From Protoeuglena noctilucae (Eukaryota): a stretch of DNA of 64,000 nucleotides. The DNA is taken from positions 558,001-622,000 of the forward strand of contig OY253687.1 in assembly GCA_958009085.1 (NCBI GenBank). Reading direction: 5' to 3'. Made by a program: the position numbers and the translations under genes. Below are positions 16,048 to 41,312 of the stretch, one piece after another. Below the pieces are notes generated by a model. It was not told the origin of the DNA and made no database searches. It saw nothing but the letters and a program-made list of their open reading frames with translations. Each line of letters opens with the position of its first letter. The first letter of the stretch is position 1.

Positions 16048-19000
16048 GGCACGACTCGGGTGCTCGTGATGAACGATCCGGAGGGCTCCATGAACCAGCA
16101 CGCCAAGTACGCGACGAACTACATCACGACGGCCAAGTATACGCTGTTGACGTTCCTGCCCGTGTCGCTGGTGAGAGGAGGTCTGGTCTGGAATGGCTAG
16201 ATGCAGCTCGGAAGGCCCGCCTCGCTCCCTTGCCGAGAGGCCGACCCGTGTTTGCAATCGTTTCAGTGCTCTGCGTTTGCTCTATGCTTCCTGTGCTGCC
16301 CCTGCGCGGAAATGTGAGTTCCACCTCCCACAGTTCGAGCAATACCGTCGCCCCGCCAACGCGTACTTCACGCTGATGGCGGCCCTGTCGCTGACGGCGC
16401 TGTCTCCGTTCAGCCCCGTGACCACCTTCCTGCCGCTGGGCTGGGTCCTGGGCCTCTCAATCCTCAAAGAGGGCTATGAGGACTTCCGGCGCCACAAATC
16501 CGACGCGGGTGAGACTTTTGCAAAGCGCTCGCTTCATGACGATGCTCAAACGCGACCGATGCGCTCGCTGGCGGGCCGCGTGGTCGGCCATCCCAGCGAG
16601 CGCTGTGGTGGAGGGCATTACGAGTAGTGGGTGCGGACTTGTAAAAGCACGCACCGCTCTCTGCGCCGCAGAGGAGAATGGTCGACACGTGGACGTGTTC
16701 AGCCAGGCGGAGGGCCGCTTCCAGCGGCGTCGCTGGGACGAGGTGCAGGTCGGGGACGTGGTCCGCGTGCGCAAGGACGAGATGCTCCCTGCTGACCTCC
16801 TCCTGCTCAACTCGTCGACGGACGAGGGCGTGTGCTACGTGGAGACTGCCAACCTGGATGGGGAGACGAATCTGAAGATCAAGAAGGGGCCGGACGAGAC
16901 GCGATGGGTCACGGAGAGGTGAGGGCGCCATGCCGAGGCGGACGGCGGTGTGTGCGGAAGGCTACGCTGGGGTGGCGAGGTCCGTTTCCACTCCTCTGCA
17001 CGCAGCGAGGTGGCAAACTTCCACGGAGAGCTGGAGTGCGAGCTGCCCAACCCGCACCTCTACACGTTTGTGGGCAACATGCACATCCCGCAGCGGGGTA
17101 GCGATGCGCCCGTCAAGCTGCCCCTGCACCCCTCCCAGGTGACTGACTCGTCGGCCTCCTTCTGCGCCCGTGTTTGCCCTGAATCTCTGGCCAAAGCTGC
17201 TGTGGTTCTGCGTGCCCTACTATCCAATTGATCCCTGGCTCCATCCCTGACGTGCTGTGCCGGCGTGACGTGCTTCTAAGCATGTTGCAGTGACAATGAA
17301 CGAGCTGTGGTCTGCGTCTCTCGTTTTCCGCAGATCTTGCTGCGTGGCTCTGCATTGCGCAAGACGGCCTGGGCCATCGGGGCGGTCATCTACACGGGGG
17401 CCGAGACCAAGGTGTTTATGAACTCGAGCAGCGCCAAGAGCAAGCGGTCCACGATCGAGCGGTCGATCGACCAGGTCGTCGTCTTCATGTTCATCCTCCT
17501 CTTCACCCTGTGGTGCGTGCGCAGCGCGACGCACGATGCCTGCGGACCCGCCCGGCTTGACGCTCGACGCTCTTTTGATGATGTTGCTGTGTCATTGTTA
17601 TGCGATTATACCAGTCTTTGGTGGCCTTTGGCATCGCGGCGGCCCTGGGCTCCGCCGCGCACACCGCAGCTCTGTGCTGTCAGCACATGCCCGCGCTCCC
17701 TGTCGCCCCCGCAGCGTCATCAGCGCGAGCCTGGCGACTGCGTGGGTGGACGGCTTCCGCGTCCACTGGTACCTCCAGCCGGTGGCGATCGGACAGGAGA
17801 ACGCGCAGTACAACGCGGACCGCAAGGGTCTCGTCTTCATCTTCACTTTCCTCAACACACTGGTGCGCGCCGCGGAAAGCTTTTCTTACTATTTGTAGCA
17901 GCCGCAGTCGCGCCGCGACCCGGCCTTGTCTGCAAGCCGCAGCTTTGTCCGCGAGGCGCAGCGTCGTCTGCAAAGCCGCTCGATGCGAGCTGCGCTTTTC
18001 CCGAATCTCCCGGCTCCTCTCTCGTTTCGCAGGTTTTGTACGGGTACCTGGTGCCCATTTCTCTGTACGTGTCGGTGGAGATCGTGCGCATCATCGTCTC
18101 CATGCTCCTCATCAACACTGACATCAGCATGTACGACCCGATCAGCAACCAGCCGTGCCAGGCGCGCACGTCGAACCTGAACGACGAGCTCGGCATGATC
18201 GAGATCGTGCTGTCGGACAAGACGGGGACGCTCACCCAGAACCAGGCGAGAGCTGCGGCCATTGGGTCCGTCTGAATGCCTTGCGCCAGTGCCCGTGCTG
18301 TGCGTGCGGACGCCCGCTGCAGGCCCCGACCGTGACCTAATTATAGTAAATTACCGAATATTTACATCTGCAGATGGAGTTCTTCAAGTGCTCGATCGCC
18401 GGGGTCGACTACGGCATTGGCAAGACGGAGGTGGAGCGTGCGTTGGAGTCTAAGCTGCCGAACGGGGCCGACGGTCACGTGGGCGCGTCTCAGGTGGAGG
18501 AGGACGACCCCGCGCAGCTGGCCAAGGTCGAGGAGGCGCGGGAGAAGGGGTTCAATTTCTGGGACGACCGACTCATGGAGGGCGCGTGGGAGGCACAGCC
18601 CTCACGGCAGGTGCGGGGGAGAGGGAGAGGGGGCGGTGCGAGCGGCGAGTGGCTATCTGTCGCACTTGGGATTGGCTGCGCACGAGGTCGACAGGGCAAG
18701 CGGCGAGGGGCTAGCGGGGGTTAAAGCATGGAGGCGATGATGTGAGCGGCCAGGAGCTATGGTGTGAGCGGCCAGGAGCTACATGCCATGGTCAAACCCA
18801 TGAGCACATCGCCACCCTCTCACGCAGAGCATCGAGCTCTTCCTCCGCTGTTTGGCCGTGTGCCACACCGTCATCCCCGATGGCCCCGCGGACCCCGACG
18901 CCATCACTTATGAGGCCGAGTCGCCCGACGAGGAGGCGCTGCTCGTTGCTGCCAAGAAGATGGGGTTCTTTTTCCACAAGAGGCGAGTCCTGGGCAATTG

Positions 19001-38900: not shown

Positions 38901-41312
38901 AGCCCTCTCTGCCTGTGATCGCACCTCCGGGCTCCTCACTCCGCTAGGCCGAGCCATGGCTTGCTTCCCTGTGCCGCCTCGCCATGCCCGGATGATACTG
39001 GAGGTGCTGGCGGGGTATCAGCCGGGGGAGGGGCTGGGGTTGGGGTCTAAGGGTGGCGCGCGGGGCGAGGGGGATGAGGGTGGGGACGGGTGGGTGGGGG
39101 CGGGGCTGGGGGGTGCAGGCGGGGCTGGGGTGGCTACGGAGAGTGGGGCTGGGACCGGGAGTGCGGAGAGGATCGTACTGGTGGAGAATGTGCTGCCGTA
39201 TGCGGTGGCGATGGCGGCGGTGCTGTCGGTGGACTCCCCCTTTGTGCACCTGGATGCGCCGGCGGTGGGAACTGAGGTGAGGGGTAAAGGGTTGTGGTTG
39301 TGATTGTGATTGTAGAGGCGAGGGGTGGAGGGGTCGAGGGGGCGTGCAGGGATGGAGAGATGTGCTTGTGGAGGGGTGCGCCGAACGAGCTGACAAGAAA
39401 GCGTTAAAATGTGTGTGCCAGTTTTTTCTTTCAAATGCAGGCGGAGGGGGACAAAACCAAAGAGGCTAAAGAGGCTCAGCGTGCCCGTCGGTCCAAACTG
39501 AATCAAGCGCAGTGGGCGATCCGGGGCAACGGTCGATCGGACGCCATCAGCGCTCTGAGGGCCCTGTGTGCCTTTGAGGCTGCGGGGGAGACGGACGCGT
39601 TTTGCAGGGAGAACGGCCTTCATCCGCGCAACCTGAGGGAGGCTGCGGCCACGCACAGGTGATCGGTGTGATGTCACGGATGATGGTGACGGGCGGTTCG
39701 TGCGGGTAATGGCGTGCATGGTACTTGACTGTTTCACTGTGGCTGTTGTCACACACAGTCCCATCACCCTTGGCACCACTCAACCACTCCACAGCCCTCA
39801 CATCACCCTCTCTCCGCAGGCAACTGGCACGTGTGCTGGCGACGCCCGACCGGGCAGGCGAGGCGCTCAAGTCAGGGTCATGGGGCGAGCTGTACATGGC
39901 TGCCAGTGAGGCGGGGTCCGTGGTGCTGGGGAAGCGACTGGAGTTGCCGCAGCCGTGGGTGGAGACGCGCCTGCGAAGGGCGTTGGCTGCGGGGTGGGCC
40001 GACCGGTGAGTGGGTGGGAGGTGTTGAGGTGATGGGAGGGAGAGATGCCGGGTGGGCTGACCTGCGAGGCCAGCTCAATACTCGTAGTGTAAGCGTAGAT
40101 GCATGGTCGACCTGCCCCCGTCTCCAACCTGCTACTGCTTCCACCCCGCGCAGTGTGGCCCGCCGCGTGCGCTCTACCGACATCCAGTCTGGCCCCCAAG
40201 ACAGAGCGGAGCCCGAGGGCCGTCGCCTGCGTGCTCTGCGGTACCAGGCGTGTGCCCTGGAGGACCACGTGTACTTGCACCCCAACTCCGTTCTGGCGCG
40301 CACTGCGCCAGAGTACGTCGTGTACAGCGAGGCAGTCAGCACGGGCAAGCGGCCCTACATGTCCACCGTGACGGAGGTGAGCGGCGACATTTGCTATTAT
40401 TCCAGTGACACTTCAGCACTTGCGCTTGCGTAGCACGGACATGGCGAGTGAGGCCCCTTACCCACACCATGTGGTGTTCACGTGTCACCATAACACCCCT
40501 CTTTGCCATGCCACGCCTCCGTGCCTCCTCGCCATCTCGCAGGTGGATGCACGGTGGCTGCCCCACTGTGCCCCAGCCATGTGCGCCGTGACTGGCCCCA
40601 TCAGCGACCCACCGCCAGAGTACTTCCCGCCCGTCGACGCCGTCATGGGGTTCTTCCAGGCGTCCTACGGTCGCTGGCGGTGGCAGGTGAAGCGACGCGC
40701 AGCGTCTTGTAATGGTATATATCACACAAACGACCTCTGCGCCTGCAACGACGGCCTTGTAGCTTCGCATCACATCGCCAGTGCACCCTTCTGCCCCTCC
40801 CGCAGCTCCCGCCACACGCCGCCCCGCACCCGTCCGCGACGCCTGCGGACGCGACGTCCTGCGCCGCCGCCTTCGCCAGCGCATTGCTGCAGGGCTCGGT
40901 CTCCCCGACGCTGGCGACGCTGGGGAAGCATTGGGTGGTCGCGCCTGAGGCACTCTTGCGGCCCGAGGGGCGATTCCAGCCCCAAGCGCTCGCGCTGATC
41001 ACGCGCCTCGAGAAAGCGCGCGCCTGGTCTCGCGCTGCGCTGCGGTGAGAGTGCAGTTGCTAGCGCAGAGCTGCGCGGCCGTCGCCGAGGCGCTTGGCGA
41101 TCGTGACTGCTTTTGTGTACATGTTTGGACGCAGAGAGAGGTGGGAGACGCAGCCGGACTTCCTCATGGAGGAGCTGGCGCGGTGCGTGCGGGGTCCCGA
41201 GGCCCACCGGCTGCGCGGCGCGTGGGCCGAGGTGGTCCGCGGGGCACGTGAGGGGGCACACGTGGGTGGGAGGGCGCCGGGGAAGAAGAAGGGGAAGAAG
41301 AGGGCGTTCTGA
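32921..41312 (+). CDS. DHX37: DEAH-box RNA helicase DHX37/DHR1 (18S rRNA biogenesis); about 18 exons
   Basis: [123 protein letters not shown]. Confidence 0.93.
34925..35152. repeat. Intronic tandem repeat of five copies of the acceptor junction CCCCTCCCAG|GTCCCCCA
   Basis: Copies near 34933, 34991, 35034 (CAGATCCCCC variant) and 35091, plus the functional copy whose AG ends at 35144. Confidence 0.9.
35763..35812. repeat. (ACACCC)n microsatellite in a DHX37 intron
   Basis: Directly visible. Confidence 0.9.
38484..38800. repeat. 66-bp minisatellite, about 5 near-identical copies, in the 3' part of a DHX37 intron
   Basis: Unit of the form CCCCACTCATACTACCCCACCCCACACCCTCTCTCAGCTCATACCCCTCCCTCTCCCTCCCCTTAC; it shows as 22-aa periodicity in the shadow ORFs. 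Confidence 0.95.

Follow-up and report, generated by a model that had tools for sequence, protein, structure and literature searches.

Spaced copies of splice junctions inside the introns of three adjacent genes in a 64-kb stretch of Protoeuglena noctilucae DNA

The growth, movement and origin of introns have long been an open problem, and it is seldom that a case is recent enough for its history to be legible. Gao and Lynch (2009) reportedly described how tandem duplication creates introns, and short template-switch mutations create inverted copies. Studies have described several related systems. The first 37-bp unit of the minisatellite in intron 7 of human F7 spans the exon 7 donor (PMC1557585). 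Direct repeats flank newly gained introns in Daphnia and Drosophila, where end joining at staggered breaks is proposed (PMC2809761, PMC3443670), and Rogers and Bendich (2025) likewise connected direct repeats at newly gained introns with break repair (PMC11782384). In the Rogers model, introns are created by the tandem duplication of an exon segment containing AGGT (Hellsten 2011, PMC3265369). At break ends with overhangs, fill-in by CST-Pol alpha-primase gives small duplications (PMC8355091). In this study, we analysed 64,000 nucleotides (nt) of Protoeuglena noctilucae (assembly GCA_958009085.1, contig OY253687.1, positions 558,001 to 622,000 of the forward strand), hereafter the window, in whose own numbering all positions are given. 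The introns of three adjacent genes, which encode a P4-ATPase, a PP2C phosphatase and a DEAH helicase, carry copies of their own exon–intron junctions, which we call echoes. Seven of the eight donor echoes are spaced and non-tandem, with the layout A-X-A', in which a spacer of 35-128 nt separates the junction block from its copy. These spaced echoes are real small duplications, and they are junction-specific within the window.

A preliminary description of this DNA had listed ten cases in which a junction or a nearby exon segment recurs inside the adjacent intron. Nine of the ten were real, several of them longer than stated there, and we added the pair 34515/34599 and the tandem pair 19390/19416. 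The tenth case, 8043 versus 8070, was at chance level, with a score of 19 that was equalled by 4 of 57 control introns. The sources and their copies are as follows.

22268-22320, + strand: source in the P4-ATPase gene, 40 nt of exon end, the donor and 13 nt; donor at 22308
22404-22455, + strand: echo of 22268-22320, 43/53 with one gap; donor pentamer intact
19390-19441, + strand: tandem duplication spanning donor 19409, 25 nt x 2.0 by Tandem Repeats Finder (TRF), 23/26; newly added
19543-19568, + strand: intronic copy of the exon-interior segment 19633-19657, 23/26; acceptor not included
26825-26851, + strand: source in the PP2C (KAPP-like) gene, 15 nt of exon and 12 nt of intron; donor at 26840
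26893-26919, + strand: echo of 26825-26851, 25/27 including a 19/19 core; exon part 15/15; echo donor GTGAG
34515-34546, + strand: source in the DEAH helicase gene; donor at 34530; newly added
34599-34631, + strand: echo of 34515-34546, 27/33; echo donor destroyed, G+1 to A
34925-35152, + strand: acceptor tandem array, TRF period 101, 2.2 copies, 88% matches; sub-periods of 44-56 nt
35338-35379, + strand: helicase source, 37 nt of exon end and GTGAG; donor at 35375
35431-35472, + strand: echo of 35338-35379, 35/42; donor now GCGAG
36105-36139, + strand: acceptor echo of 36192-36226, 30/35; 9 nt of intron and 26 nt of exon; upstream, intronic
36835-36865, + strand: helicase source, 25 nt of exon end and GTGCGT; donor at 36860
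36948-36978, + strand: echo of 36835-36865, 31/31 identical; 82-nt unrelated spacer
38151-38191, + strand: helicase source, exon end, donor 38176 and 16 nt
38320-38356, + strand: direct echo of 38155-38191, 31/37
38260-38300, - strand: inverted copy of the 38151-38191 junction, 35/41; newly added
39988-40010, + strand: helicase source, weak case; donor at 40006
40046-40068, + strand: echo of 39988-40010, 19/23; donor changed to GCGAG

In each of two runs, RNA contig joints confirmed the P4-ATPase intron 22308-22607; its pair is wider than the 22285-22314 given earlier, and the same intron holds an 11-nt mini-copy of the 22308 junction at 22362-22372. In the array at 34925-35152, every unit includes the acceptor and the first 8 exon bases, and the last unit is the real acceptor. 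The GC-type donor GCGAG of the 35431-35472 echo is also used by an RNA-verified intron of the same organism. The 39988 pair is weak (score 26), yet it scored above all 70 control introns. Identity between the copies ranges from 100% to approximately 81%, as the earlier claim of mixed divergence had it.

Two further likenesses were observed in the P4-ATPase gene. A 24-nt tandem duplication (83% matches, 19348-19394) lies in the coding exon immediately upstream of the 25-nt duplication across donor 19409, and the two small duplications adjoin at 19348-19441. The ends of two consecutive exons, 17474-17520 and 17827-17870, are similar at 36/47 positions, GTGCG donors included; no insertion is evident against an orthologue, and the likeness may reflect codon similarity of hydrophobic segments.

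Each 40-nt junction was scored against its own intron, with a cut-off of at least 26, for a set of 82 introns (median length 163 nt). Donor 40-mers reached the cut-off in 8/82 cases, and all eight matches beat every control intron (4917 control comparisons in total), whereas mid-exon 40-mers reached it in 0/164 (Fisher p = 1.2e-4 versus donors). Acceptor junctions reached it in 6/82, but in three of these a microsatellite or array extends up to the acceptor. In the cross-intron controls, 243 comparisons yielded 3 events, whereas 35 real events were counted in 82 regions. In an independent DNA run from a different study (depth approximately 130-140), the contigs showed 0 differing letters at the compared echo loci, the 39988 pair being excluded, and broke solely at the exact 31-mer repeat; the bridging piece 36836-36977 had a depth of 133, and its flanks had depths of 129 and 126.5. 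This agreement and the equal depth exclude mis-assembly and collapsed alleles for the compared loci. We therefore find it hardly credible that chance similarity, low complexity or mis-assembly produced the echoes: the 8043 pair comes close to noise, as perhaps does the 39988 pair, but the cross-intron, shuffle and mid-exon controls disagree, and the independent run reproduces the loci.

The echoes are unevenly distributed. Ten introns bear them, namely 7/16 in the helicase gene, 2/18 in the P4-ATPase gene, 1/8 in the PP2C gene and 0/40 elsewhere in the window, and the difference between the helicase gene and the other introns (7/16 versus 3/66) is significant (Fisher p = 2.6e-4). The word "systematic" in the preliminary description was consequently too wide, as the events are confined to three adjacent genes, with seven of the ten introns in one of them and none among 40 others. 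The helicase gene lies within the stretch of highest GC skew in the window.

An annotation-free scan of the whole window, made with tiled Smith-Waterman alignments, found 58 local direct repeats; a blast self-comparison with a strict complexity filter missed true pairs. The spaced, non-array events scoring at least 35 comprised six from donor to intron, one from intron to acceptor, one from an exon-interior segment into the upstream intron and one between consecutive exon ends, while none was found in the 12.7 kb of intron interior or in the 22 kb of unannotated DNA. Two weaker spaced events in intron interiors scored 28 and 32; otherwise the interior matches were tandem arrays or adjacent repeats with units of 15-66 nt. 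In 7/7 spaced donor echoes, the spacer did not resemble what follows the second copy (scores within the range of 200 shuffles), even for blocks that are 31/31 or 25/27 identical, and the spaced echoes are therefore not decayed tandem duplications. Ordinary tandem duplication by replication slippage, with a 58-165-nt unit spanning the junction and later decay, is exactly true of 19390-19441 and 34925-35152, the only cases with a head-to-tail arrangement. For the other seven donor echoes and the 36105 acceptor echo, the spacer is unrelated to the sequence that follows, the intron part of a second unit is absent in all seven spaced donor cases, and TRF finds no periods of 58-165 nt at the spaced echoes. 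As a general explanation, tandem duplication is contradicted for the spaced cases and is in our view very improbable.

A different possibility is that there is no targeting: duplications would occur uniformly, exonic ones would be purged, and those at junctions would survive and stay visible through their frozen exon copy. Several observations agree with this. Introns and unannotated DNA often contain tandem repeats whose units measure 22-66 nt (about ten loci), and one tandem at a donor together with one array at an acceptor is roughly the rate that uniform duplication predicts. Mid-exon copies are absent (0/164), and a minimum intron part of 5 nt in the copied blocks fits a selection filter. 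The 40-mer rates are also similar, as intron-interior 40-mers reached the cut-off in 4/56 and 5/56, compared with 8/82 for the junctions. The check proposed in the preliminary description, carried out here on the window, thus separates junctions from mid-exon sequence but does not place them above intron interiors, and with the two rates so similar, the 40-mer test taken alone would give the result that the description had named as speaking against a junction-centred process. The junction excess appears only once tandem arrays are set apart from spaced unique copies. The target sizes are 10.8 kb for interiors and 1.6 kb for donor-spanning positions, approximately sevenfold, so that uniform duplication predicts several-fold more interior than donor spaced copies; the interiors contain none at a score of at least 35 and two at 28-32, against six donor events. 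In a decay simulation, the detection advantage of a frozen exon copy was no more than 1.3-1.4-fold. Under the uniform model, the probability that 6/6 events fall at donors is 3e-5, or 3e-3 at a fourfold advantage, and when the two weaker interior events are included it is 6e-4 to 0.04, depending on the assumed detection advantage. Because the spaced copies are at junctions and none of this strength is in interiors, uniform duplication plus selection fails to explain the pattern, and we regard it as unlikely. The echoes are accordingly not a by-product of general tandem duplication, on the evidence of six strong spaced donor events and one acceptor event with none in interiors.

The copied blocks are 19-53 nt long, the exon contributing 11-40 nt and the intron 5-17 nt, and they end abruptly, the 31/31 pair included. 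In the seven spaced donor echoes, the block measures 23-53 nt, of which 15-40 nt are exon end. The intron part is always at least 5 nt, that is, a complete donor core, which fits selection on the working copy. The GT/GC donor pentamer is kept in 6/8 echoes, one echo lacks G+1 and one is scrambled; two have drifted from GT to the GCGAG form. In the 35338 pair, there are three synonymous differences in the part that still reads MTDGILL and nonsynonymous and stop changes upstream, as expected if constraint acts on the exon copy alone. The echo-bearing introns have a median length of 227.5 nt, which becomes 164 nt after subtraction of the copy-to-copy distance, compared with 159.5 nt for the other introns.

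Selection could have kept the echoes as extra U1 binding sites, as decoys that tune splicing or, in intron 38176, as a hairpin that hides a decoy. The retention of the GT/GC pentamer in six of eight echoes would suit such a role, the copied part is what defines the 5' splice site, the hairpin at 38259-38357 is very stable, and preferential retention would account for the junction specificity. In human F7, the identical pseudo-donors are silent but functional (PMC1557585). The echo donor cores of the window are, however, not better conserved than the exon parts (8/46 versus 22/182 mismatches), and two of them are damaged as described above. RNA contigs from two runs of one study use only the authentic upstream donor at 19409 and 22308, and splicing from an echo donor would put the message out of frame or, at 36973, run into a stop (36917). 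A selected function is thus improbable. The decoy sites proposed in the preliminary description are present in so far as 6/8 echoes offer usable GT/GC pentamers, but the RNA contigs at the two donors pass them over.

The seven spacers show no mutual similarity and have no further copy in the 64-kb window, and no shared termini, inverted ends or A-tails were seen when they were read by eye. Neither spacers nor blocks have other copies in the window, which agrees with the earlier statement that each echo is unique to its own junction. It has nevertheless to be considered whether the spacers are short mobile or retroposed sequences resembling introners, inserted at splice-site-like targets, with the echo as a long and variable target-site duplication. 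The block-spacer-block layout and the sharp boundaries resemble such a duplication, and intron 46461-46549, described below, looks as if it was made by insertion. At 19-53 nt, the duplicated blocks greatly exceed transposase footprints in both length and variability, and no short target duplication of fixed length was found. Introners have been reported from marine algae (PMC9860276). With seven mutually dissimilar spacers that are single-copy within the window and show no common ends by eye, this origin is as improbable in our opinion as a selected function.

In intron 38176, the inverted copy (38260-38300) and the direct copy (38320-38356) stand side by side and share derived bases. The segment 38259-38357 forms a hairpin of approximately 45 bp, with an RNA fold of -103.5 kcal/mol and z = -4.75, and an inverted-repeat scan of the 82 introns gave only this locus and one marginal match. 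The inverted copy forming this hairpin is a template-switch signature. The same intron also contains a 66-nt minisatellite of 5.2 copies (97% matches) at 38460-38802.

We believe, with a probability of roughly 0.5, that the echoes are neutral scars left by break repair or by template switching, with splice junctions as the places where they concentrate. Each echo would result from a single copying event that takes a junction-spanning block, mostly an exon end with the donor signal or its mirror arrangement at the acceptor, and the copy would land in the same intron behind unrelated sequence. The exon-side copy would stay the working splice site, while the inner copy would be left as a decoy without use and would decay neutrally. 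The likeliest source is error-prone repair after DNA breakage at the junction or close to it, either through a staggered break filled in with filler DNA or through polymerase template switching that re-copies the adjacent flank; the same event class has already been proposed for introns born with flanking direct repeats. Repair as the mechanism and a lack of function in the decoys are what we infer, and breaks, rather than retention, are probably what is concentrated at junctions. As a guess, the strong G skew at intron starts, together with the GC skew that is high in the helicase gene, hints at transcription-linked instability. The recurrent local process suggested in the preliminary description therefore holds as regards its junction-centred, recurrent and variously aged events, but replication slippage, one of the causes it offered, fits only 19390 and the acceptor array.

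Several points weigh against neutral scars of junction-centred repair. The intron-interior 40-mer rate is not below the junction rate, the split into spaced and tandem copies was chosen after the data had been seen, and when all interior repeat loci are lumped together, the junction excess becomes marginal (a rough binomial estimate, not a tool result). Donor-like pentamers inside introns number 76, compared with 82 true donors, yet they carry no spaced echoes, and the donor motif alone is thus not the target; no mechanism tested accounts for the junction preference. Apart from the intron at 38176 and the 11-nt piece at 22362, the spacers do not look pieced together from their flanks. The G-over-C skew of the spacers argues both ways. 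Its mean is +0.47, compared with +0.32 for native intron starts and +0.29 for the sequence after the echo; the resemblance of the spacer to an intron start fits a copy inserted into an old intron, and the resemblance of the post-echo sequence to an intron start fits the spacer as the insert. In addition, the sample is about ten events in one 64-kb window, and, with thin RNA coverage of the helicase gene, most of its junctions are without RNA proof.

One further intron of the window bears on the question of intron gain.

46444-46556, + strand: intron 46461-46549 (89 nt) of an ARM-repeat (importin-like) gene, whose flanks are direct repeats in register, 21/24

Among the 82 introns, it has the sole cognate pair of donor and acceptor flanks scoring at least 20, where 0.04 are expected at its score. 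Such flanks are the footprint described in the literature for introns that arise by insertion with target duplication, and block and spacer are of the same size here as in the echoes. Judged from its sequence, it is a candidate young intron from the same block-spacer-block event class. In the echo introns themselves, the second copy is mid-intron, so the repeats do not overlap both splice sites. The intron gain raised in the preliminary description thus receives a hint from this one intron only.

Relatives were sought in two scans. A metagenome scan that used the lineage-specific helicase exon as query brought none to light. A scan with the P4-ATPase alignment gave 79 loci, the closest of which (L001-L005) had 67% and 52% amino-acid identity and a GC content of 0.63-0.66. 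Two of them, L003 (7298-10465) and L005 (6326-12010), encode the P4-ATPase as single open reading frames of 1055 and 1894 amino acids, respectively, whereas in this organism the same span is broken by at least 13 introns. No local repeats were found at these closest loci, and since those genes are single open reading frames, they offer no orthologous introns for comparison. A stronger version of the repair explanation is that an active DNA-level process, aimed at junctions via transcription, splicing or chromatin, adds a stretch of tens of bases up to about 150 along with a copy of the junction, and so lengthens introns from their ends, seeds decoys and occasionally creates introns such as 46461-46549; intron growth and gain would then be caught in the act, with relatives having intron-free versions of the gene. 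We hold this only tentatively, as a possibility clearly less probable than neutral scars.

The window has a GC content of 60-69% and numerous short GT-AG introns. The public sequencing runs that contain its sequence are marine metagenomes, metatranscriptomes and one labelled organism, and the best named protein match is from a pedinophyte green alga, with 58% identity across one P4-ATPase exon. Pfam places a P4-ATPase C-terminal domain in the P4-ATPase gene, a PP2C phosphatase domain in the gene previously called KAPP-like, and HA2 helicase domains in the previous candidate DHX37 gene, which is the DEAH helicase gene here. Among the joints listed, RNA contigs fix at least 11 introns, of which ten are GT-AG and one is GC-AG. 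The remaining introns come from a purpose-written splice-aware gene finder trained on the RNA-fixed introns and open exons; the RNA-verified introns served in training and are therefore not an independent check of it. Only introns between well-scoring exons were retained (78), four doubtful ones were removed (9317-9425, 9508-9707, 11833-12138 and 53245-54520), and eight were added, namely three RNA-verified introns, one from the first pass and four helicase-gene introns read by eye. Two orthologous P4-ATPases (tblastn) match the predicted exons of the P4-ATPase gene. The helicase-gene junctions rest on the gene finder and on presumed DEAH-box motifs that continue across the splice points; for example, what is presumably the GKTTQ|VPQF motif reads in frame across the acceptor with the exon start at 35145.

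Some other features of the introns and repeats were observed. GC-AG introns are unusually common, with 1/11 among the RNA-verified joints listed and 7/82 (approximately 8%) in the intron list, namely 18983-19173 and six further predicted ones; GC donors reach approximately 60% in Emiliania huxleyi (PMC4028052), a contrast on which that alga was rejected as the source of the DNA. All 82 introns together show a composition gradient, with G over C in the first 40 nt (skew +0.32) and C over G at the 3' end (-0.49). At 20319-20538, a P4-ATPase intron contains a microsatellite, (CACCCT)n with about 37 units, and both RNA and DNA contigs break there. Tandem repeats at 59426-59526 (52 nt x2) and 59708-59785 (26 nt x3) lie in unannotated DNA near a gap of 200 N at 58430-58629.

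The junction copies in one gene range from 100% to approximately 81% identity, which indicates events that are recent and have happened more than once. Should the preference for junctions prove general across the genome, it would suggest a process of breakage or repair tied to splice sites, and with it a testable path by which insertions that duplicate a junction lead to longer introns, decoys and new introns. If it does not, the window would be a clean example of selection and coding constraint exposing small duplications only at exon edges. The literature searches, and the statement is limited to them, brought up no account of spaced copies of junctions in a large number of introns, and none of the systems cited above includes single, spaced junction copies within many introns that already existed.

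Compared with the known systems, the echoes show both likenesses and differences. As in human F7, copies of an exon end and its donor are in the same intron. The F7 pseudo-donors are intact and yet the most upstream site is used, as it is in the RNA contigs at 19409 and 22308. F7, however, has a head-to-tail array at one junction, whereas here seven single copies stand behind 35-128 nt of unrelated spacer, the echoes occur at many junctions of neighbouring genes, and only 19390 and the acceptor array are tandem. Like the Rogers model, the echoes suggest that duplicated splice signals are tolerated since splicing removes the extra copy, but that model requires a contiguous tandem unit, and the echo spacers copy nothing nearby. 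For fill-in and template switching, no preference for splice junctions is known, and the copies are usually adjacent without a spacer; the duplication of tens of bases beside a break and hairpins such as that at 38260-38356 are shared with the echoes. The repeats of gained introns, mostly of 5-18 bp, stand on either side of the entire intron, one at each splice site, whereas the echoes are 19-53 nt with the second copy in the middle of an existing intron, so that an intron becomes longer and no new one is made. In both, a duplicated block with splice sites flanks a sequence of unknown origin, and intron 46461-46549 fits the gained introns fully.

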